From positions 19,098,001 to 19,162,000 of the forward strand of contig NW_024704743.1 in assembly GCF_018977255.1 (NCBI RefSeq): a stretch of DNA of 64,000 nt. The letters are read 5' to 3'. Positions within the stretch are counted from its first letter, which is position 1, and each line of letters opens with the position of its first letter. Under the pieces are notes generated by a model. It saw nothing but the letters and a program-made list of their open reading frames with translations. It had not been told where the DNA came from and made no database searches. The translations under genes were made by a program, and so were the position numbers. Below, piece after piece: positions 8,081-47,949 of the stretch. This stretch comes from Callorhinchus milii. Lineage: Eukaryota.

Positions 8081-10097
8081 TGTACTTGTCCTCCCCAAAT
8101 ACCTATTGGAAGAATGGCTAAGAATTACAGAAAGGTATTACGTTCCTACATAATGCAACCTGTGATTAGAACACTGCTACAAAATAAAATGGAGGAAGAC
8201 AAACAAAACCAGCTAATAGAAGGAGTGGTGCGTGACGTAGAAGCAGCTCTGAATGAAATTCTGCTAATTAATCATATTTAATTTGACGAAGCTTTTGGAA
8301 ATATGATAGGATTAAATATGGCTTTGATGAAGAGATTAACTACCATCATCCCATACAAGAATAGGAATGATCCTTTGGATCAGGATGAAAAAGATTTTAG
8401 GAACTATTGGATTCTGACATCTTGGATGAAGTTGGTGGAATACCCTGCTGTGGTTACCTACCAATAATTAGAGAAAATGACAGATGCCGAGGCATTTGAG
8501 CAGTTGATACTGGTCAGGTACATATGTCCATTACAGCACAATCTTTAGTCAAAACACAAACGCCTTACACTTCTGTAGTTTGGAATAGGTGAGATGATTG
8601 GCAGTTCTTGGATCTTAGCCAAGGTAAACATGGTGGTATCATACATCGCAGGAAGCTCCCAAATACAAAAAAACGTTAACTTGATGCGGATGAGTAGGGG
8701 GAATGATATAAGGTGACAGCACAAAGTGTTCAGTACCCGTATTTGAATGTAAGAGTTTTCATAACAAAACTTAGCTCATCATCAGGAATGATTATGAAGG
8801 TTACCTTTACTCCTCAGGAACTCAGAGACAGTGTGGTAACTACACATTGTACCCGCGTATTGCTGAGTTTCATTCGAAAAGACCTAGAGCTAGGCACGTC
8901 CAAAATAGAAACAGAGACAATGTGGTTAGTAAGGGAATAATGGAAGAATTTGTCAGCTTTATTAGCCCAGTCCTGCCTAAGCCCCCACAGGCAGCAGTTT
9001 TCAAACAGATGCTTAAAGAATTTTGTATTGTGCCTTATCACGTCTTCAGGATTTCTCAAAGCGCCTCACAGAATATAGAGTGAATTGACTGTATATTTTG
9101 TGGGCGAAACGTGACAGCCAATTGCACACAGCAGTGTCCCACGGACAGTTGTGGATTGAGTGACCAAATTATTATTTTTTTTTGAAGGGGTTATTACCCC
9201 CGGAAAAGTGATCCTCCAATCGACTAACAACCGGGTTCCTACTTACTGTTAGGTAAACAGAGGGGTGTGGAGTAAGGAAACTTGACCAACATTTCACCTT
9301 GCTGGCCAGGACCCCGGAGAAACTCCCTTCTCATTTTGAACAGTGTCACTGGATCTTTATCAAGCAGAAGGCCTTGTGGTTTCATGCCCATTCAAACGAT
9401 GACATGTCAAACACAGCGCTGGAGGCTGAATCATCAAGTACAAATCATTAATTGGGGGAACAATGGAGCGAGCTTTTATCTAACTTTGAAGGTGTTTTGA
9501 GTGAAGAAAACCTTTCTCCCTTTTGGTACAGATACAGGATGACCAAAAAGTCTCATTCTTTAGCTACCCTATTATCAAAGAATCATAAAGCACAGAAGGA
9601 GGCCATTCAGTCCTTCGTACTCGTGCCGGCTCCTTGAAAGAGCTATCCAAATTAATCCCACTCCCCTGCGCTCTCCCCATGGCCTTGCAAATTTGTCGTC
9701 CACAAATACCTATCCACTTCTCACTTGAAAGTTATCAAATCTGCTTCCACCACCATTTCAGGCAGTGCATTCCAGATACAAACTCATCTAAAAAAACATT
9801 TATTTAAAACTTATTAGACATTGTAATGGTATCATGACTTTTTGGTCACCTGTAAATTGTGTAATGGACAAGTATTTAATCCATTGATATCCCTGATAGA
9901 ATTAACACTCTTGTCCATTCCTACTTCCTTTCCCAATCTTTAACAGCCACCCTTGAGCTGAGTGATGATAAGGAAACGATGGAATAGTCTTAAGTACTGT
10001 TCTTATCTCACCTACAATTAGAGTCAAGCACAGTGGAATACATTTCTTTCCAAGTCTCAGTTACTTGTATTTAATTTTTAATTTTGCAAGTTTGCAC

Positions 10098-10331
10098 TCA
10101 AACATGCTTCCTCAGGGATATTTGATGCCTCAAGCTTTGATTGAGACTTTTTTGTTTTGCTTTTAAGGCGTTCTGCACTTCATTCTCTGCTTTAGGCTTA
10201 ATTCTCTTTAAAGGCTTCTGCTTGTGTGCATACCGAGTCTTGGGTTGCCCTCTTCGTTTCATCTTGGTCATTTTCACTTTTGTGTATCGCTTGCGAGATT
10301 GACTACATTTGCCTCGATATCTCGTCTTCAT
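10098..10331 (-). CDS. Spermatid-specific nuclear basic protein S2-like (transition/protamine-like), copy A, 77 aa, intronless
   Basis: True ATG at 10331 (GAGTCATGA context); 27/77 residues K+R; C-terminus NEVQNALKAKQKSLNQSLRHQISLRKHV resembles dogfish S2 as I recall it; TATA upstream, ATTAAA downstream. Confidence 0.8.
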   Translation of the reverse strand: MKTRYRGKCSQSRKRYTKVKMTKMKRRGQPKTRYAHKQKPLKRIKPKAENEVQNALKAKQKSLNQSLRHQISLRKHV

Positions 10332-10401
10332 GACTCGTCTTTCTTTCACCAAACTTTTGTGGACGAACTGCACTTCTGTAAATGTTTGGTCATTTTTCAC
10401 C

Positions 10402-10408
10402 TTTTATA
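10402..10408 (-). promoter_or_regulatory. TATA box of S2-like copy A
   Basis: TATAAAAG on the minus strand, same spacing to ATG as copy B. Confidence 0.8.
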
Positions 10409-11218
10409 GTTCATGATGCTTCATGAAACATGTATGATGCTTTATGACACTGGGTAGCTACACCTTTGGTCTATGCCACAATATTGCCTTTTAAGGTACT
10501 GCTGCTCATATTACATGCACGTAATAAACCTTGTGTGCGTTCCTTATAAGGTATTGTTTTACACAGTTTGCAACAGTTGTAAATTTTGCCAGTTTACAGA
10601 AACTACCCTTGCAATGTATATTTTAAATAAACATTCAGTTCCAAAGTCCAGATCTCAGAGATTTAGGGCAAAGTCTGTTTTGAGTTTCTGACCCTCATTA
10701 CATTTGCTGACCTTGTCGCGAGAGTGCGTCCATTTTATCATCAGTCGTGAAATCTAGAGACCATGGCAGTGTGAGGTTAAAATGAGATTTTCCCATTACA
10801 ACCGCACATTGGCAAGATCCATAGATTTACCGACTGATGATAGAATCGGGCATGCTCACCCATAGGCACTAAATTCAACAACTCCACTATTATACTTTTC
10901 CTTCCCAGTCCCACCCAACTCAAAAGTTACAAACGTCCATAATATATAGGGCTTTAATTAAGACTTCATCATTACTGTGTAATTTTTACAATATCCTATG
11001 GAAATATTAGAAAAAGTTCATGGTGAACTTCTGTTGATAGCAACTCAAGTATAGTATCCAGCTAAATGCATGTTTAATTCAGAGTATGAATAGAATAAAA
11101 GACTTGCCCGCTACACCCAATATATTGACCCTAATCCCACTTAATATACTTCAAGTGGTGCTCAAATCATTTCAACAACAACAAAATTACATTTGTATAG
11201 TGTCAAATATATATATTT

Positions 11219-11532
11219 AATAATAAATAATAATAATAATCCTTGTATTTGATATTGCGTTTTTCAGTCGGGAGGACTTTCCAAAGCGCTTCACAGAACA
11301 CACTGTAAAGTGAATTGACTGTATATTTGTGGGCGAACGCGGCAGCCAATTGCGCACAGCAATGTCCCACAAACAGTTGTAGATTGAAAATGACCAATTT
11401 ATTATTGTTTTGGAGGGATTATTATTAGGCGTGCGGAGTAAGGAAACTTGCCCAAGGTTTCGCCCTGCCTGGAATTGAACTCAGGTCTCTCGCTTGCAAA
11501 GCGAGTGCTCTAACCACTGAGCTACAGGACTC
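11219..11532 (-). mobile_element. Full-length SINE in the spacer between the two S2-like genes
   Basis: Same family. Confidence 0.92.
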
Positions 11533-12169
11533 CATTTGTATACCCAAGGCAGTTCAAGTTAAGAAATGAAGTAACACAACCAAAATATAATAGTTTACTG
11601 TAACCTTTGTGACTCATGTCATCTGGTTAACACAACTGGATCAGCATTGATATCACTCATGTACAGACACCAACCACCTTGTGGTAAATTGTTATGTTCA
11701 TTAAAGTAACCTTTATTAAACATAGGGGTGAGCATGCCAGGTTCTCTCATCATTCAGTAAATCTATGGACCTTGACAATGTGAGGCTGCAATGGGAAAAT
11801 CCCATCTTAACCTCACAACACTATAGTCTCTGATTTACCGACCGATAAAATGGACATACTCTCGTGCCAAGGTCAGCAAATGTAATGAGGGTCAGAAAAT
11901 CAAGTACCTTTGCACCAAATCTCTGAGATCTGGACTTTGGAACTGAATGTTTATTTAAAATATCCACTGCATTGTAGTTTCTGCAAATCCGCTAGATTTA
12001 CCACTGATGCAAACTGTAAAACAATACCTTATAAGGAATGCACACAAGATTTATCACGTGCCGGTAATATGAGCAACAGCACCTTACAAGGTAATGTTGT
12101 AGCATAGACCAAACGTATAGCTACCCAGTGTCATAAAGCATCTTACACGTGTCATGATGCATCATGAAC

Positions 12170-12176
12170 TATAAAA
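12170..12176 (+). promoter_or_regulatory. TATA box of S2-like copy B
   Basis: TATAAAAG 77 nt upstream of the ATG; identical in the paralog. Confidence 0.8.
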
Positions 12177-12246
12177 GGTGAAAAATTACCAAAAATATTT
12201 ACATTTGCAGTTCGCCCACAAAAGATTGGTGAAAGAAAAACGAGTC

Positions 12247-12489
12247 ATGAAGATAAGATATCGTGGCAAGCGTAATCAATCTCGCAAGCGACACACGAAA
12301 GTGAGGAGAATGAGAAAGACCAAGTTGAAACGAAGAGGGCAACGTAAGACTCGGTATACATACAAGCAGAAGCCTTTAAAGAGAATGAAGCCTAAAGCAC
12401 AAAATGAAGTGCAGAACGCCTTAAAAGCAAAGCAAAAAAGTCTCAATGAAAGTTTGAGGCATCGAATATCCCTGAGGAAGCATGTTTGA
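12247..12489 (+). CDS. Spermatid-specific nuclear basic protein S2-like (transition/protamine-like), copy B, 80 aa, intronless
   Basis: True ATG at 12247; 33/80 residues K+R; C-terminus NEVQNALKAKQKSLNESLRHRISLRKHV; TATAAAA at 12170; AATAAA at 12504. Confidence 0.85.
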   Translation: MKIRYRGKRNQSRKRHTKVRRMRKTKLKRRGQRKTRYTYKQKPLKRMKPKAQNEVQNALKAKQKSLNESLRHRISLRKHV

Positions 12490-12503
12490 GTGCAAACTTA
12501 CAA

Positions 12504-12509
12504 AATAAA
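12504..12509 (+). terminator. Candidate poly(A) signal of S2-like copy B
   Basis: AATAAA followed by ATTAAA (12512); the paralog has two ATTAAA at 10070-10082. Confidence 0.5.
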
Positions 12510-12990
12510 AAATTAAATACAAGTATCTGAGACTTTGAAAGAAATGTATTCCATTGCGCTTTACTGTAATTGTAGGTGAGATAAGTACAGTACTTAAAAA
12601 GACTATTCCATTGTTTCCTTATCTTCACTCACCTCAATGGTGGGTGTTAAAGATTGGGAATGGAAGTAGGAATGGACAAGAGTGTTAATACTATCAAGCA
12701 TATCAACACGGATTAAATATTTGTCCATTACGCAATCTACAAAGGTGACTAAAAAGTCGTGAAATGTCTAATATGGCTTAAAAGAATTGTTTTTTACATA
12801 ATTAGGATAACTGAAAAATAAGACTTTTTGGTCACCTTGTATTTGTACCAAAAGGAGGAGAAAGCTTTTCTTCACTCAAAACACCCTCAAAGTTAGATAA
12901 AAGCTTGCTCCACCATTTCCCCGATTGATGATTTGGACTTATTGCATTTTATACCTGCGGATAATCACGGTCTGTACCCAGTGCTTGTTG

Positions 12991-16033: not shown

Positions 16034-16252
16034 CTATACACCATCCACCTTCAGAAATTTAGCAATAAAGAAACCTATGGTGTCTTCATTTGCAGAGTTG
16101 ATTAAATGCACTTGCTGACTGAGATCCAGCTCTGAAGAATATACATCAAAGTCTCTTGAAATGACGCTGGCTGGATCAAACCGCTGCAGCAATTTCAGTT
16201 GATCACGTGACAGGCCAGCACCCATCATGCCTTCGCCACCAAGGTGAGGCTC
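16034..16252 (-). CDS. NSUN6: NSUN6 last coding exon (EPHLGGEGMMGAGLS...DTIGFFIAKFLKVDGV*)
   Basis: 219 nt including TAG; GFFIAKF motif; summed CDS 1428 nt = 475 aa. Confidence 0.95.
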   Translation of the reverse strand, partial: EPHLGGEGMMGAGLSRDQLKLLQRFDPASVISRDFDVYSSELDLSQQVHLINSANEDTIGFFIAKFLKVDGV

Positions 16253-16815
16253 CTTTGGGGAAAAGAAATATTAAGTGCAGTTTTAACCCTTTACAATCCC
16301 ACCAGAAAATACATTAATGAACATAAGAGCTTTTTGTGAAAAGCAACGGAACCCACAGAAAGGAAAACATCACTAGACAGCTATCATAGCTTTACAAAAT
16401 ACAGATGCAAGACCAATGTGGTGGCAGTCTAAAGAATAAGAGGAATGGCCTTCAGGAGAAGTACAAGCACATTTTAAAAGAAAAAGAAAAAGTGGGCTGG
16501 GTGGGAGGAGGAGATAATGAAGAAACAGCACAAGGGTCAATGATAAGGTTGTATTTCTGACCTAGGTGAATGAATTAGAATTCAAGTATTAATATAATTC
16601 TATGAATTTAGTGAATAATATACTCAGCTAGTACAAAATAATTACATAATTTGAAATTTACATTTAATTTATCAGCGAGTGTTCTTCTTTAACAATAGAA
16701 AAAAGCGCTCAACACACAGTTTTGGGGTAAAACAGTCCAAACAAGTTGCTTACAAAAACTGTAGTCATTAACTAGATATGACATTTCATCTATAGTGTGC
16801 AGAAGAGGTACCCAC

Positions 16816-29470: not shown

Positions 29471-30108
29471 ACCATTGACATAAATGAACAATCTGCAACC
29501 TTCTATTATGTAACTGGCTAGGTGGTTAGATGTGCAAATAGATCCAATGGTGACTTCTCAAATATTGTGGTGGAATAATAACTTATATCCATCAGAGTCT
29601 GACTGAAATAAGAAATTTGCCATAGCAGGAAGAGAAATCCAACAGTATACCCCCATTATGTCCAATTGCCATAAACCATTTCACTTAAAAGGGAACTGGA
29701 TTTATTTGCAGAAAAACTATAACTATATAAGGGATCAAGGAAATAACAGGAAATTGGGAATAGTGTATATAGCTCCAGTGGAGTAGCTTCAAATATACTG
29801 CTTGCATTTATACTTCAGTGAAATAAATCCATTTCCTCCCAAATCATCTTTACTGGCTGTCAAAAAACAGATCACTTTGCAAACATGTGCCATAACCCTG
29901 AGGTAATAACAACAACAAAATTACATTTGTAAATACTGCATCTTTAGCATTGGTTTGACACTAAATTGTGTGTTGAATCAATAATGTTCAGGCCAAGTAA
30001 TTGGATATTGGAATGATCACTTGGATTTAACCATAAATTTAAGCTTTTATTTTCAACAAAGGAGGGTTTAAGAAAAAGGTGGAAGTTAACTAGCAAATTG
30101 CTACTTAC

Positions 30109-30218
30109 ATTTTGGTGCTGACAGAATGCCAGGAGCAAAAACATGGGCTCCGCGAAGCACAGCATTTCCACACTGAGCTCCCACAATCACTTCAGAGGAG
30201 TGCCTATGTAGATTTATT
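30109..30218 (-). CDS. NSUN6: NSUN6 coding exon 4, PUA domain (EVIVGAQCGNAVLRGAHVFAPGI)
   Basis: 110 nt, AG/GT flanks; PUA signature. Confidence 0.96.
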
Positions 30219-30424
30219 CTGAAAATAGTGATAACACACATTTGCAAATAAAGTTGCCGAGGTTGCCTGAGGATTTCATTCATGGCCTTCAATTCTTACT
30301 CGTTGCAAAATAACTTTCTATTTTACCCACAAAATACTGTATAAGAATAATAATCATTGCATTTTATGTAATGTCTTATCATGTTGTGGAAATGTCTCAA
30401 AGGGCATCTCAGGACATACTGTAA

Positions 30425-38394: not shown

Positions 38395-39034
38395 AGGAGG
38401 AGGCAGCGTGCGCCGTGACGTTACAACAATAAGGCGGAGGAGGCAGCGTGCGCCGTGACGTTACAACAATAAGGCGGAGGAGGCAGCGTGCGCCGTGACG
38501 TTACGACAATGAGGCGGAGGAGGCAGCGTGCGCCGTGACGTTACGACAATGAGGCGGAGGAGGCAGCGTGCGCCGTGACGTTACGACAATGAGACGGAGG
38601 AGGAGGAGGCGGCGGCGGCGTGCGCGACGACGTCACGACAGTATGGTGGCGTGCGCGTTGACGTCGGCTATGCCAGTGGCGGCTCGCGGCGCCGCTCGCG
38701 GGATAACAGATTCAAACGAGCCGCGGAGAGAAGGGCGGTCGTTAAAGCCGGACGCCGAGCCGTTCGGCTCCGTCGAATGACATGCGGCCCCGGCGCGCCG
38801 CGTCGTTGGCGGCTTTGGGTGTGTGAGTGAGTGAGTGAGAGAGAGAGGAGAGCTCGAGCTCTTCGCGGTGGACGGCGCTCACCCCCTCCCTCCCCTCCCC
38901 CCCCCCCCCCCCCCCCCCCCCGGACAGCCAGGGTTCAACCGGTAAATCGTGGAGCGGGGCCGGGGAAGAGGTGTGGAAGCCGGGAGCCGGCGCTGGCAGC
39001 TGTGGCCGAGGCGCCCGCCCGCGCCCCCCCCGAC
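38395..39034 (+). promoter_or_regulatory. ARL5B: ARL5B CpG-island promoter / 5' UTR
   Basis: CpG-rich region immediately upstream of ATG 39035; multiple TGACG (CRE/ATF half-site) motifs. Confidence 0.75.
38401..38600 (+). repeat. 5 x 40-bp tandem repeat (AGGCAGCGTGCGCCGTGACGTTACRACAATRAGGCGGAGG)
   Basis: Units start at 38401, 38441, 38481, 38521 and 38561. Confidence 0.97.
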
Positions 39035-39080
39035 ATGGGGCTTTTGTTCTCCAGGTTTCGGAGCTTCTTTTGTAACCAAG
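39035..39080 (+). CDS. ARL5B: ARL5B exon 1 (MGLLFSRFRSFFCNQ; Gly2 myristoylation site)
   Basis: GACATGG Kozak context; 46 nt; CAAG|gtagg donor. Confidence 0.95.
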
Positions 39081-39100
39081 GTAGGTTCCAGCTGTCGAGG

Positions 39101-40070
39101 CTCCCTCCCTCCTCCCCCCCTTTCCCCCCTTCCTCCCCCCCCCTTTCCCCCTCTCCTCCCCCCTTTCCCCCTCTCCCCCCCTTTCCCCTCTCCCCCCCCC
39201 TTTCCCCCCTCCCTCCCCCCCTTTCCCCCTCCCCCCCTTTCCCCTCCCCCCCCCTTTCCCCCTCCTCCCCCTTTCCCCCCTCCCTCCCCCCCTTTCCCCT
39301 CTCCTCCCCCTTTCCCCCTCCCTCCCCCCCTTTCCCCTCTCCTCCCCCTTTCCCCCCTCCCTCCCCCCTTTCCCCCCTTCCTCCCTTCCCCCCTTCCCCC
39401 TCTCCTCCCTCCCCCCATCTGTTTGCTCTGAGGTCTGGTCTGTGGTTGCGTTATAACCAGAGCTCTCTTTCCCCCCCTCCCTCCCCCCCCCCAAGTCCCT
39501 CACCCTCTCACCTCCCCAAGTCCCTCACCCTCTCACCTCCCCAGTCCCTCACCCTCTCACCTCCCCAGTCCCTCACCCTCCCCCCCAGTCCCTCACCCTC
39601 CCCCCCAGTCCCTCACCCTCCCCCCCCCAGTCCCTCACCCTCCCCCCAGTCCCTCACCCTCCCCCCCCCAGTCCCTCACCCTCCCCCCAAGTCCCTCACC
39701 CTCTCACCTCCCCCAGTCCCTCACCCTCTCACCTCCCCCAGTCCCTCACCCTCCCCCCCCAGTCCCTCACCCTCCCCCCCCAGTCCCTCACCCTCCCCCC
39801 CCCAGTCCCTCACCCTCCCCCCCCCAGTCCCTCACCCTCCCCCCCCAGTCCCTCACCCTCCCCCCCCCCAAGTCCCTCACCCTCTCACCTCCCCGAGTCC
39901 CTCACCCTCTCACCTCCCCGAGTCCCTCACCCTCTCACCTCCCCAAGTCCCTCACCCTCTCCCCCCCCCCAGTCCCTCACCCTCTCACCTCCCCAAGTCC
40001 CTCACCCTCTCACCTCCCCAAGTCCCTCACCCTCTCACCTCCCCAAGTCCCTCACCCTCTCACCTCCCCC
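39101..40070 (+). repeat. Polypyrimidine C/T tract (39101-39420) and CCCCAGTCCCTCACCCT(CTCACCT) minisatellite (39490-40070)
   Basis: Direct reading of the sequence. Confidence 0.95.
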
Positions 40071-40452
40071 ATGTTATTCCAGTTGAATCTCAGTGAACAC
40101 GAGTGAGTTTGCTGCTGGAGGGTATGGTATGGACTCCCCCCCCCCCCCCCACCACACCCCCCCCTCCCACCTCTCCCAGGACCGAGCTGCAAATGCAAAT
40201 ATTAAACAGGAGCAATTTTGTCAAGGTGGGGAGAGGAGGGAAGGGATGGTGGTGGTGGTGGATGGAGAGCGAAATCTAAATTCCTTGAAATGCTGATTTT
40301 TTTTTTGGCGAAAAGCAAATAAAAGAAAAATGTCAATGGAGAATTCGGTATATAAGAAATTTGGAAAACAATGTGTGTGTGGGGGGGTGGTGTGGGTGTG
40401 TGTGTGTGTGTCTCACTTTGTTTTTGGCCAAGTTTTAGATTGCTTCTCGTTT

Positions 40453-40771
40453 AGTCCTGTAGCTCAGTGGTTAGAGCACTCGCTTTGCAAGTGAGAGACC
40501 TGAGTTCAATTCCAGGCAGAGGGCGAAACCTTGGGCAAGTTTCCTTACTCCACACAGAGCCTAATAATAATCCCTCCAAAACCAAAAACAATAATAAATT
40601 GGTCATTTTCAATCTACGACTGTTTGTGGGACATTGCTGTGCGCAATTGGCTGCCGCGTTCGCCCACAAATATACAGTCAATTCACTTTACAGTGTGTTC
40701 TGTGAAGCGCTTTGAGACGTCCTCCCGACGTGAAAAGCGCTATATCAAATGCAAAGATTATTATTATTATT
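40453..40771 (+). mobile_element. Full-length young tRNA(Ala-TGC-like)-derived SINE with L2-like 3' end and (TAT)n tail
   Basis: A box TAGCTCAGTGG, B box GAGTTCAATTCC; near-identical copies elsewhere in the window. Confidence 0.93.
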
Positions 40772-41161
40772 AGGGATAGGGTTCGCTGCGACTCAGTCGT
40801 GCCTTTTTCGGTGTTTGTGTAAGGAGCGAATGAGAGGTTTCTGACTGGAGTGAGGGGGGGGGAAACAGTTTTCCTTCACCTTGTCTTCCCTGTGGGGGGG
40901 GAATTAATTGTGGAAACTGCTCCAGCACCTGTCGAGATTTGGTGACTTTTGCAACTCCTGAGCCCAAACTCTTGTCGCTGCTGTGATGGCTTTGGAACGA
41001 GCCCCAGGCTGCTGGGGCTCCTGTGAGACTCGGTTATGTGTTAACATGTTTGATGAAATGTTAGTGCTCGGGAATTGGAGAGCTTTGGTCACCCAGTCAG
41101 CATTGGCATCAAAATTATCTCTGTTAATAGAGAACATGCAACAGATGTTGGTACATACGTT

Positions 41162-41484
41162 ATAATAATAATAATAATAATAATCCTCGCATTTGATGTA
41201 GCGCTTTTCACGTCGGGAGGACGTCCCAAAGCGCTGCACAGAACACACTGTAAAGTGAATTGACTGTATATTTGTGGGCGAACGCGGCAGCCAATTGCGC
41301 ACAGCAATGTCCCACAAACAGTCGTAGATTGAAAATGACCAATTTATTATTGTTTTTGGTTTTGGAGGGATTATTATTAGGTGTGTGGAGTAAGGAAACT
41401 TGCCCAAGGTTTCGCCCTCTGCCTGGAATTGAACTCAGGTCTCTCGCTTGCAAAGCGAGTGCTCTAACCACTGAGCTACAGGAC
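41162..41484 (-). mobile_element. Full-length SINE, same family
   Basis: Reverse complement of 40453-40771. Confidence 0.93.
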
Positions 41485-42739
41485 GCCACAAATTGTGTGT
41501 GTTGTAGAACTAATACAATTAGCCGCAATACAATTTATATTTCTATAGGACCTTTCATGTCGAGATGATATCTCAAAGCACTTGACGCCGCTGGGTTGAG
41601 GGTGGGAGCTAAAAGGGATCCAGGAGGGGGAAGATGAACAAAAGTGCGATTGGTTTCAAAGAAGTACATCTTCAGACGAGCCTCGAACGAGGAAGGAGTG
41701 AGGCAGGATTGACTCTGGGATGATGTTCAGAGAGCAGAATGTGGATCTGTAACTCTTGAGCTCCTGACATTATATAATTTGTCTGTTGCTGGGTAGATCT
41801 TGGAGAATCAAATAACTTGATGGCTGGGAGGGTCAGTACGAGCCTGTGCACGAACAAAACCTATCTGGTCAGAGTGAGTCCTCATTTTGCTCACGGTCAG
41901 ATCATGATGGTTCCTGATACTGTACCAGTGTAGCAATAGTGACAGTTTTTGCTGCCAGTGGAGGCGTTGAGAAAATTTCATGCAAGCCTCAGCATCTTTT
42001 GGAGGGTCTCCAAATAGGTATCAGAATCATACTTTCATTGATTAAGTTTTAGAGGTGGAAAAGCACTGTGTTGACAGTCTGCATCACTTAGATGTATTGC
42101 TTATATTTTTACATTTCACTTGGGAGAGTAAGTTTAACCCAACTAAAGAAAATTCTACTGTTATCCTGGTAGCTCAGCTGGGCATACAGCCTGGGAAGTT
42201 CTGGGATTCATCTCAACCACAGTATATTTGGGGTTTTACAATTGGCAACAGATCTCTAATCAGATGGATCAGGAATGGGGCAAAATGGCCAGTTGTTCTA
42301 CTTCTGATTATTAACTGTAACCAGTTACCTTTGTGTGGACCATTGTCATTTATCCATTGCCAAATTGCCTGCCAATAAATACACTGTCAAAGTTTACATG
42401 GGAATAATGGCCAATTGAATGAGAGGATATCTGTCATTCATTGAAATAAGTAATTCCAATACTCGAAAAGCAGCCTCATGGAGATCTGCCACATTAATTG
42501 GCAAAGACTTGCTTGGATGACTTATCTGCCCCGTCTCCCTTGTTCACTATCCAATCCCTCCACTGTACAGCTCTCCGAGGTGCTATCCTGTGTGTGTTTG
42601 ATACCTTTTAGTTCAGCGTCAATCCACTGAGATGCTACCTGAGTGAAAAGTGCTATCTAAATGCAGGTTCTTGTAGATTGCAACTGAGTTGCATTTTCAA
42701 CAATTATTATTTGTGATTGTGCAAAATATTGTTTTACAG

Positions 42740-42800
42740 AACATAAAGTTATAATAGTTGGCCTGGACAATGCAGGAAAGACTACCATCCTTTATCAATT
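42740..42800 (+). CDS. ARL5B: ARL5B exon 2 ([22 protein letters not shown]-loop)
   Basis: 61 nt, AG/GT flanks; GLDNAGKT motif. Confidence 0.97.
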
Positions 42801-45800
42801 GTAAGTAATATCTCTTTTGCATGTTTAACAACAAAGTAATAATAATGATGCTTGCATTTGGTATAGTGTGTCATCAAGACTTCTCAAAGTGCTTTACAGG
42901 ATTTTACTATGAAGTGTAGTGACCATATTTGCAGTCCAACATTCTAGATGTTAACCTTGACCAACATTTGAGATCTTGATTAGATAATTACAGTACAGTA
43001 TATAGTGTTATAAAAATCAAGATCTTGAATATATTTAGTCTCACATATTTTCCTCCTTACAAGGTAGGAGTTTTCGTTGATGAGATTCCTTAAGGTCACC
43101 TTCTCAAGTTTTCTCTGGCCTCATTGTATCTCATTCCAGTCTTTTTTAAAAAAGGGCTGGTGACTTCCATTATATTGTTCTTCACTTGATACCTTCAGTA
43201 GGCGTTCCATGTGTATTGTGCTGCATCCTAAAAGAGTAATATCTTTGATTAGTTGGGGATCTTCATGGTCCGTTATGGAAGATATCACTAGGCTTTGCCC
43301 TAATGTCTCGCTATGTACTTGAAGTTGCTTTTCCAACACTATTGGGGTATGTTGGACATCTTGGAATCTATTCTTTGTTGCTTTCCATCCCATAAAGTTG
43401 TCAGTATTATGGTACTGTTTTTGACGTTTGGCCTTCCCATTCCTTTCTCTCTCTTTGTTCAATTATTAAGGTATATTGCTTATCTTAGAGTGGTGTGTTT
43501 TTACTTTTAATATTGTGATGCTGACTTCATAAAATTATGGTCTCGGAACATCATTTCCTCTCCGTCCCCAATTTTGGATGTTACCCATTAATAAATTGTT
43601 TCTAGGTTGATTTTGAATAATAAAGTTTATTTTTAAAAAGTAAAATGATACCCATAAGAAAGTCCAATGTTAGAGGTTTGGATTTTGCTGACTTGGCTTC
43701 TATTCTTGGATATCAATTTGTGGCTAATGGATATTAATTTCACACTCCATCAGCCTCTAATCATGTAAAAAAAGATGAGAGACTGAGATACAGTTTTTTA
43801 AATTTTAACATTGTGATTGCCACCCCTTCCTCTCCCCTCCCCAGTAAAAAGGGTTGCATACTGAAAATGTTGAAATACAGGGTGCTACAAGCCTAGAGCT
43901 GTTATGTAATATTTTCTTGTCTTTTAATCGATAGCCATGGAAAGAAAGCAAAAACAAAATTCTGTATTTATTTCAGTTCAGTCAAAATGTGATTGTTAGA
44001 ATGGCACTCTGCCCTCTCATCTTGGCTAAGGCTTGACAATATTCTTTCAGCGTGAGTAGGTAGTCGAGATCATGAACAATGTTGGAATTCTGAAATATCA
44101 CTTTGCAGGAAGTTGCAAAACTGTTGGTGCCTAAGCTATTTGTAAGATTGGGCATAAGCTCTACATTCCATTTGTATGCAAAGTTGAATTTCTGTTTCAG
44201 CTTTAGTTGAATAGCAATCAGAATATTGAATCCTAAAGAGCTTTCACATGATCAATTTACTCCTCTACACTGTATTAAGGTATCCCCATTCCAATGTTTA
44301 ATCAAGGACTTAAATGTTATTGATCAAGTTTGCTAACCAGTATTTTACAGAATTCATATTGGTTGATTTAAAATTTCCAAAAGGTTTTTGGTGTTGACTT
44401 TTCAAAAGAGCTCCATAATTCAAAATTGTTTTGTTCTCAATTTTAAATAATGATTGAGATATTAGTTGGTAACAGCAGGTTTTTAAACACCCAAAGAGAA
44501 AAGTTCCATCTTGACTCTACATTTACTGTATTTATGTGACATTCTGGAGCATCTGGAATTCGGCAACTTGTTGAAATCAGTGTTAACTTTTGAACCTGGT
44601 TTCAGCAGCTCTTTGAACTTGTGGAAAAGTATTGTAAGGCTGGATGTAAGAATTTGTCGAATTCTAGATGCTCTAAAATGTTACATAAAAAGAATAAATC
44701 TAGACCAAGTGGAATTTCTTCCCATAATATACAACTCTCAACAGTGTTGTTTCCAGAACTGGCACTTACCTCTTTGCAGTCAGTGTGAATCAGTAATTTG
44801 ACCCAGCAGTAGTTTTACAAGTGCGTGTTTATGTTAGAGGTAATGCATTCAAGAGCTTTATTTCACATTGTTGATGGAAACATTTAAATGTTTGCATGCG
44901 CAGCTACTGTCAACAGTATGAAAGAAAACTGCTAGATTGTGACCTTTTTAAAACTGCCTATTACACAAGTTTAGTTCCGCATGTTTTTTGTGGGTCAGCC
45001 CGGTGTCTGACACATGCGGAAACCCATCACCATGCTTAAGAGTATCCAGACCAAGCTGAGATTTCCACGCTTCCCACTTACACATGGAAATCCCAGAGAT
45101 AGATTGTTGGAACGGAATGTGCACTCTCTCCCTGGAGGGACGGATCCTGCTTACTCTTCTTGTTATTACTCTTAAACCTTAAGTAAGTGATCCATAATAA
45201 TGTACCGCGTAGAAACAATGCAGTTTTTTCACAACACTTATTAATGCTACATTTGTTGAGGGCATATGGCCCAAACAAAAGTAATAACCCTTGCATTTTA
45301 TACACCATCTTTCATATTGCGAGGACATCTCAAAATGCTTCACAGGATATACTGTAACGTGTGGACTGTATTTTGTAGACTAAATGCGGCAGCTAATTTG
45401 CGCACAGCAATGACTTGTATACAGCAATGAAGTGTTTGAGCAACTTTACCTGGGAGATTGTTGGCCAGGACACGAGGAGAAACGCCCTTTTCTTGTTGAA
45501 TAATCCCTTGGGATCCTTACTGACCACCTGAACATGGGGTCCTCAGCATACTGCATAGGAGTGCCAGCCCAGACTATTTGAGTTCGAAGTCCTAACGGGC
45601 CTTGAACCTTCAGACTCTGAGGCATGAGTGCTAATTACAGAGCCAAACTGACACCATGGTTACAAGTTAACATTGGTTAGAATATGGACTAAAGGGATTC
45701 CATCAGTATGAGAGCCTTAAGTCAGCAGTGCATTATCTCTCATCAGTGCTTCCCATTTCCACTGTACCATTCTTTGGCATTGCAGTCCTAACTGTCCCAC

Positions 45801-47209
45801 TCAGCCTCTCTTCACCTTTCAATAGCTTTCCTGGTTCTTTAGTCACCTTTGATGTACTCCATTTCCAACCCGTTCCTGCTTCATCGATACGCCCACAATA
45901 CCAAAGTCCACCTCTCCACTACCATCTGCCGAACTGCCTGTTTGACATCAAGTGCCAAGTCGTAACTATACATTGACGTTGATGAGATTGAAATCATCAT
46001 GCTCAGATCGCACCGACTACTCTTGCTTTAATTCCATTAATCTATCTCTCTCTATGCTCACTCAGGCTGCATCCAGAGCATTTTATTTGACCCTAAACTG
46101 AATTTCAAATCTGACATCCGATCCATCACCAGGATTGACTGCCTTCCTTGTCTGCTTGTACCCTATTTTATCATGATCTCTGCTGAAACCTAAACTGCAT
46201 CTGTCATTCATAAGATTAGATGTCTCCAATAGTTGTTCTTGGACTTCCTAGCTTCAACTGTTATAAACTTTAATTAATTCAGAACTTTGGTCAGAGTCGA
46301 GTCTTGAGCTTTTCTCTTTGTTTCTCTCCCCCCACTTGTACATCCTGACAAAACTCAACTAAGTCGAAATGCCACAGTAGATACATTCCAAATTGTCAAT
46401 CTCAGTTTCTGCAATCTCACCACGGTTTTCAGTCAGATCATGCCCTCCAATTGGAAACTGAGGTTTAAGGTCACCACACAAGTATTATCTGGAGCCATTT
46501 CCCAAAGGCAACTTTCTTTTGTCCTCCTATCTTTCTCCCTGCTTTCAAAATGCTTCTAAATACCCATTCCTGCAACCATAACAACAGATTGCATTTATAT
46601 AGCACCCCTCACGCAGTGTTAGATATATGTTTTACATAAGTGGCACTACATAATACATGGTTTTATTCTCTTGTTCTAGCTAACAGGAGATAACAATATT
46701 GCAGGCATGAAGTTCAATTTTAAATGAAATGTTTCACTTTGTTTTATTGTCATTGTATCATTTCAAAGAAGATTTATGTAGGATATTGTCAGCAATGTGT
46801 TTCAAAATATCTTTTTCTCATTGAGAAAAAAAGTACTTTTTTATGAATGCATGCATTCTGAGATTATTACACTGAGATTTTCAGACAGGTTAAGATTCTG
46901 CAATATCTTAACCAGAAATTCAAGGGTCATCAGTCTTGTCACCAGAATATCATTGAAGCACGATGGTGACTTTTTAAATGAAAGCCCCTGAGTTGAATGA
47001 ATAAAATTCACACCCTGGCACTCAATCCACCACTATTCTGCTAATACTCTTCAACTATTTCCTAGACCTGCTATCCCACAAATTATTTTTTGTTTTGTGA
47101 ATGAATATTGCAAAGAAAAAGCAGCTTTTATACAGTGCTCTGTTCAAAAGAGTGAGGAATTAGCCAAATTATACGAGATTATGCTTTTTTTTACCCTTTT
47201 CTTTTCTAG

Positions 47210-47357
47210 TTTGATGAATGAAGTTGTTCACACGTCGCCTACCATTGGAAGCAATGTAGAGGAGATAGTGGTTAAAAATACACATTTCCTTATGTGGGAC
47301 ATTGGTGGACAGGATTCCCTACGTTCATCATGGAATACTTATTACACCAATACTGAG
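47210..47357 (+). CDS. ARL5B: ARL5B exon 3 ([18 protein letters not shown]...[21 protein letters not shown])
   Basis: 148 nt; switch I/II, WDIGGQ motif. Confidence 0.97.
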
Positions 47358-47949
47358 GTACGTGAACTACTCAAAATAAGTATCAAGTTCATTATTTTAA
47401 ATTGGCTTTTGCGATTTGGAATTTAGGAGTATACATGTCTCGGACCATCAATGGAATCTAAATAAGAATCACTACACTTGTAGGCTTAGTATTTCAAGAA
47501 TATATGAATTACCTTAGAGTTACTAATATTTAGCGCTTGATAAAGTGGGAATGAATGATATTCCATATTTTCAGGAGATGGATATCAACACGAGAGCCAG
47601 TGTGTTGCTTTATGGTTGGCTAAGTAAAACTTTTAAAAGTGATACAAATATAGAAGGCTTTAAATAAACCCAACTGTTCCTTGTTTCACTGTGTTCTGTC
47701 CAGTAGACTATTGTGTGTACTACTGGTGTTCTGGAAATGAAACCAATAATCATTTTAACTCAAAACTGAAAATGTAGGTATCTTGGAATGCCCAGAATCC
47801 CCGTTGGTTGATTATCTTCCATATTTTCTAAGGAAACAGAGTAGACATGGTCTTGGCACAAATTATAATTTCACAATTTTTCACAATTTTTTACTATGTC
47901 CCATATCAAATAAGTCAAACTAATGATTTTAATTGAATTAAAATTTGCT

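Follow-up and report, generated by a model that had tools for sequence, protein, structure and literature searches.

We analysed a 64-kb stretch (64,000 nucleotides, here called the window) of the genome of the elephant shark, Callorhinchus milii, and conclude that two small genes within it, A and B, are probably functional intronless paralogues of the spermatid-specific intermediate proteins of cartilaginous fishes, forming a sister clade of the dogfish protein S1 and most likely belonging to the S2 type. Dogfish S1 and S2 are transient intermediate proteins, S2 being Lys-rich and about 80 residues long. The original prediction had described two open reading frames (ORFs) of 77 and 80 residues with 35-41% Lys+Arg. 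Both frames are indeed intact, and the recomputed content was 35.1% for A and 41.2% for B. The proteins have a pI of 11.7-12.0 and 2 Asp/Glu apiece. B contains 16 Arg and 17 Lys and has a basic N-terminal part, while A carries a 9-nt in-frame deletion relative to B.

The signals reported together with these frames were all present in both copies: a TATA box, TATAAAAG, 77 nt upstream of the ATG, the start context GAGTCATG, and a poly(A)-type hexamer past the stop (ATTAAA at 15 nt in A, AATAAA at 14 nt in B). The two genes sit in an inverted duplication with arms ~85% identical (Table 1), so that the matching signals represent one signal that was copied rather than two independent observations. 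The expectation that such genes would be easily missed by annotation did not hold, as UniRef already contains both proteins. A and B are real genes, predicted already but unnamed, and they add members to a known S1/S2-type family. We found no open-access paper on them; the primary dogfish papers lay outside the scope of that search, which does not establish absence from print.

Homology to dogfish S1 and probable S2 identity

A profile of five S1-like proteins together with A, B and C (a third intact copy, described below) retrieved the Swiss-Prot entry SSS1_SCYCA, 'Spermatid-specific protein S1' of Scyliorhinus canicula (P0015), at E 2.5e-25. When the S1-family profile was built without A, B and C, it scored B at 19.7, C at 17.5 and A at 10.9 bits, with at most 4.8 bits for three other basic ORFs. 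Full-length shuffles reached the real score in 0, 1 and 0 of 1000 cases for B, A and C, and local shuffles in 0, 6 and 0 of 1000. Profile-profile alignment (hhalign) of the A/B/C type with the S1 family gave E 2.4e-6 (probability 88.9, 72 columns). Furthermore, when a DNA profile built from 12 S1-like loci (13 were supplied, and one was dropped for want of a matched start) was run over the whole window, the two arms were its only matches below E 1 (E 9e-10 and 2e-8), each match covering the coding end and 3' flank. Taken from these sequence comparisons, membership of A, B and C in the chondrichthyan spermatid-specific S1/S2-type family is supported through homology to S1.

In a tree, A, B and C stood apart from S1 and the S1-like genes with 100/100 support (rooted at the midpoint only, with bootstrap values not fully settled). 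Their placement as a distant sister clade of S1 is supported by the profile scores set against shuffles, by the DNA homology and by a 3' element common to both groups. S1 resembles A and B in size (87 versus 77-80 residues), in its basic N-terminal part and in a related C-terminal segment, with 31/87 positions identical in a global alignment to B. It differs from B in composition, having 31 Arg and 8 Lys, and its close relatives in C. milii are 13 other loci, whereas A, B and C form a separate clade.

We consider it likely that A, B and C are S2 orthologues, given their Lys-rich, 80-residue, S1-sister character and the features of S2. The C-terminus put forward for S2 in the original prediction is alike to B by eye at 21/28 positions. 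S2 is known from an elasmobranch, whereas the A/B type is holocephalan and multi-copy.

Paralogues and selection

The C. milii genome contains five copies of the A/B type, all on one contig (C2). Copy C, at 107.5 Mb (G000:C2:107462648), is intact and encodes the uncharacterised UniRef protein A0A4W3KE18_CALMI (P0003) letter for letter; beyond the proteins of the window, this is the one database entry related to B. It is 73% identical to B, colinear with it and preceded by the same promoter and start context, but it lies 88 Mb from the pair and is unnamed in the database. The other two copies are decayed: D (120.6 Mb) has lost 37 nt of coding sequence, while E (115.2 Mb) lacks its 3' half and has repeats inserted. 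As all five retain the promoter, they were presumably duplicated as DNA and not via RNA. A DNA tree of the five resolved only A+B, and weakly (83/81). Two further whole-genome-like runs contain B with 2 and 4 differences across 535 nt, as well as A-, C- and D-like contigs, which rules out an assembly artefact as the source of the copies.

We then compared substitution rates along the three intact genes. Over residues 50-80, dN/dS was 0.22 for A-B, 0.13 for B-C and 0.21 for A-C (Fisher p 0.084, 0.008 and 0.043), while over residues 1-49 it was 0.65, 1.45 and 0.63, respectively. Judged from these ratios, the C-terminal 31 residues are constrained and the basic N-terminal part is fast-evolving.

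The same data bear on the proposal that one or both of A and B are silent or redundant and decaying, with copy C as the working gene. Broken copies are common in the family (2/5 of the A/B type and 6/13 S1-like loci), A lacks three codons and has the lowest S1-profile score, and the A-B selection test taken alone gives p 0.05-0.08. However, the coding divergence (9.4%) is lower than that of the flanks (10-16%), the sole coding indel is in frame, and neither gene has lost its promoter or its 3' signals. When neutral evolution was crudely simulated to the divergence seen in the flanks, 2.5% of 5000 runs kept an open frame. We therefore regard decay as very unlikely.

Predicted structure and proposed function

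AlphaFold2 predicted a helix at residues 49-79 with a pLDDT of 86-96, the N-terminal half being less certain. Within this helix, a hydrophobic residue recurs every 3-4 positions. For a winged-helix globular domain of linker-histone origin there was no Pfam match, and the model consists of two helices with no globular domain; a Foldseek search with it gave no match. Pfam returned no transition-protein, protamine or linker-histone match; the three families that it did list are unrelated and fell short of their cut-offs. The PDB sequence search yielded only histone H2B tails (at best E 0.02), which we put down to composition, and the ESM Atlas only scores under 0.8, among them protamine clusters at 0.76 for one S1-like protein, which we treat as a lead only.

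True protamines are Arg-dominated and contain long Arg runs. A and B were rejected as true protamines on the basis of their Arg content (10/77 and 16/80), a longest basic run of 3 residues and the absence of a Pfam protamine match. TNP1 and TNP2, whose mammalian genes contain an intron, are analogues and not established homologues, and A and B have no Pfam transition-protein match; what they share is the presumed role. TNP1 and TNP2 are described as small basic proteins that take over from histones before protamines arrive (PMC8812575, PMC9258737). Drosophila Mst77F is described as having an unstructured basic DNA-binding part and a second region responsible for multimerisation and for condensing DNA (PMC4381051). 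We use Mst77F as a model of mechanism only, with no homology implied, and its domain order is the reverse of that in A and B.

The pair probably arose when a cassette of ~1.2 kb, comprising promoter, ORF and 3' end, was copied as DNA and inserted the other way round. For its function, the following course of events appears probable. A and B would each be transcribed post-meiotically from their own CArG/TATA promoter. The Lys/Arg-rich N-terminal ~48 residues would bind DNA electrostatically and help to displace histones, while the C-terminal helix, likened to the second region of Mst77F, may mediate self- or partner association and condense the chromatin. Protamines would then replace the A/B protein, as with transition proteins generally.

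An alternative is that A and B are S1/S2 relatives which in chimaeras persist in mature sperm as the final packaging proteins. Sequence cannot show timing, and the family is expanded here, with 3 intact A/B-type and 7 intact S1-like genes. Nevertheless, an Arg content of only 13-20% and basic runs of at most 3 are unlike typical protamines, and the genome also has distinct protamine-like ORFs (see below), which makes this reading unlikely. A look-up of RNA data sets containing the pair listed none. Two possibly-RNA runs of unspecified tissue were searched over 11550-12730: X8 gave 0 contigs, and X5 gave 6 low-depth pieces, 90-95% or less alike, which look like DNA because they also cover upstream non-coding DNA. 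Neither run speaks for or against expression.

Weighing the assignment

Several results weigh against A and B as functional S2-type genes. Compared with S1 by direct BLASTP, the pair shows no significant similarity: B aligns only at E 0.15 (28% over 57 residues) and A not at all. A genome search with S1 gave 14 matches, none of them A, B or C. No S2 record was retrieved by word-seeded protein searches (3, 3 and 2874 candidates), the last of which returned 12 matches including S1, and a HMMER scan of 1.84 billion representatives returned P0003 only, again no S2. The genome searched was that of C. milii, and no relative from another shark, ray or chimaera genome turned up. Whole-gene dN/dS is 0.46-0.67, the selection tests use 3-5 changes per class in three pairs that are non-independent, and the AlphaFold2 model comes from a 3-sequence alignment with a pTM of 0.32.

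The claim of a transition-protein family is supported in part: S1/S2-type membership is backed by the S1 profiles compared with shuffles, by hhalign and by the DNA profile, and not by direct comparison with S1. The exclusion of A, B and C from the 14 genome matches of S1, the weak BLASTP and their separate place in the tree indicate that they are not S1 orthologues. The non-retrieval of S2, even though S1 is in the same collection, may be accounted for by word-based candidate selection and 50% clustering. S2 did not turn up in the open-access literature search either, and a proteomics supplement contained no match.

The non-significant BLASTP, together with scores inflated by low-complexity basic proteins, could also suggest that A and B are basic nuclear or antimicrobial peptides with a merely compositional likeness to S1, or else that the arms are mobile-element sequence. 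On the other hand, composition-preserving shuffles fall short of the real score, and the homology reaches into non-coding promoter and 3' DNA. The possibility that the arms are high-copy transposons was checked: with 40 of 156 candidates scored, the gene or the promoter part was carried at 5 loci, the remaining arm matches being one ~100-nt dispersed 3' repeat (12735-12848). We consider both versions of this alternative extremely improbable, and S2-type intermediate proteins remain the preferred reading.

Naming these elephant-shark proteins would provide mapped genes and promoters for the S1/S2-type family and extend its record to holocephalans, which in turn implies that at least the S1 type is older than the chimaera/shark split. 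Protein transitions are reported to have been characterised in dogfish testis zones (PMC11607694), and a recent review asks whether unrecognised analogues of mammalian transition proteins exist in other species (PMC9258737).

A promoter motif shared with S1-like genes

Both A and B carry, 223 nt upstream of the ATG, a 13-base motif whose core is CCTTATAAGG. We take this core to be a CArG/SRF-type box. The motif is not over-represented in the genome overall (31 exact matches, versus 52 for the reversed control). Thirty matches were examined; 17 of them coincided with small basic ORFs or with what is left of their promoters, and 13 did not. Three of the 17 belong to A, B and D, and eight to S1-like ORFs. 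Also among them were a promoter remnant of S1 type, located 1.2 kb after C, a 53-residue ORF in two copies with one remnant of its promoter, and a 94-residue His-rich ORF. Thus, the motif taken from the pair led, without any protein sequence, to the S1-like family, eight members of which (database or genome proteins) are identical to S1 at 56-67/87 positions.

This family comprises 13 full-length single-exon loci spread over six contigs; 7 are intact and the other 6 broken. The loci, L049-L061, are dispersed, the contigs named being C2, C4, C12, C15, C19, C20 and C21, and several of the proteins are uncharacterised in UniRef. One UniRef entry, A0A4W3K3G7 (P0013), looks like the start of L038 joined to the rest of a broken copy, L037, 5 kb off. 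With related genes scattered on chromosome-scale contigs, the description of the window as a genomic locus for transition proteins proved too narrow.

A CC(A/T)6GG box was found 118-326 nt upstream of the ATG in 18/18 tabulated loci, many of which were found through the motif itself and include non-independent paralogues; the background is 18 boxes in 154 kb (0.12 per kb). Non-circular cases are a 53-residue ORF near E and a 51-residue ORF beside D, both found by composition, and the S1-like loci L050, L051 and L060, found by protein search only. A similar element lies just past the poly(A) hexamer in the S1-like genes, the pair and the 53- and 51-residue ORFs. As a gene finder, this 3' element was discarded: 6/11 exact matches were known family loci, and the other 5 had no basic ORF.

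These observations allow a broader and more tentative proposal, which we find possible rather than likely: that a battery of dispersed single-exon cassettes, 20 or more in number (S2-like, S1-like and several protamine-like) and sharing a CArG-box promoter and 3' element, runs the histone-to-protamine exchange in cartilaginous fishes, driven post-meiotically by a MADS-box factor of the SRF/MEF2 type, and that it arose from one ancestral cluster scattered together with its promoters. The A/B pair would then be one cassette, and the motif a handle for unannotated protamine genes. The promoter signature shared across these genes is possibly new. Such a battery, exposing further protamine-like ORFs, adds to the interest of the pair and raises concrete questions about the constrained part of the protein, the activating factor and the reality of the ORFs under the same motif.

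Other protamine-like ORFs

The 53-residue Lys/Arg/His-rich protamine-like ORF (P0004) occurs in two near-identical inverted copies 520 kb apart, L015:3342-3500 (-) and L017 (G000:C2:115201342 and 115722273), with two CArG boxes, a TATA box and a poly(A) signal; its promoter-only remnant is at C2:104.49 Mb (L027). The 51-residue basic ORF is single-copy (L013:1342-1494 (+), G000:C2:120636342), lies 0.7 kb after the decayed copy D and has its own CC(A/T)6GG box, a TATA-like site and the shared 3' element. Neither was present in the protein collection (2/2 looked up). The 94-residue ORF (L031:1042-1323 (-), G000:C2:117.27 Mb) is likewise preceded by the promoter motif and by a TATA box; its Cys/basic N-terminus, which may resemble dogfish keratinous protamine Z1, is followed by a long His-Ala/His-Pro-Thr repeat. 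The S1-type promoter remnant after C (L003:2690-2795) has the same orientation as that copy. Seen with the other mixed neighbours that C2 carries at 96-121 Mb, this remnant is a hint that an ancestral cluster has been broken up.

Genomic setting

The coordinates of the features in the window are given in Table 1. The pair had been called divergent, but not in the sense of a bidirectional promoter: a promoter copy is present in each arm, and the ATGs are 1.9 kb apart, which rules out a shared one.

Table 1 Features of the A/B pair and its surroundings (window positions)
Feature	Position	Strand	Remark
Gene A, single-exon ORF, 77 residues (P0002)	10331->10098	-	intact frame
Gene B, single-exon ORF, 80 residues (P0001)	12247->12489	+	intact frame
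TATA box, A	10401..10408	-	77 nt before ATG
TATA box, B	12170..12177	+	77 nt before ATG
13-base promoter motif, A	10542..10554	-	223 nt before ATG
13-base promoter motif, B	12024..12036	+	223 nt before ATG
Second CC(A/T)6GG box, A promoter	10487..10496	.	one mismatch in B
ATTAAA signals and downstream 3' element common to S1-like genes, A	10052..10082	-	
AATAAA/ATTAAA signals and shared 3' element, B	12504..12536	+	
Arm A: promoter, gene A, 3' flank	about 9436..10864	-	~210 extra nt at about 9572-9785
Arm B, inverted relative to arm A	about 11723..12940	+	
High-copy SINE-like short repeat in spacer, outside the genes	11218..11535	.	40 of 3826 candidates scored, 93-97% identical
NSUN6, frame with last coding exon	16034..16270	-	stop at about 16034; ~3.5 kb from B, tail to tail

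The distal promoter of A contains an imperfect hairpin (10732-10846, 56-nt arms, 77% complementary) in a region common to B and D.

The naming of NSUN6 as the neighbouring gene was borne out by an exon at 30107-30295 that matches PDB NSUN6 (E 8e-11) and by the position of the last exon. A calcium-channel beta-subunit (CACNB) gene, presumably CACNB2 by human synteny, ends ~1.5 kb before the window, placing the pair between CACNB and NSUN6. On its other side, NSUN6 (16034-37000, -) stands head to head with an Arf-family gene at about 39000-47400 (+), which we take to be ARL5B.

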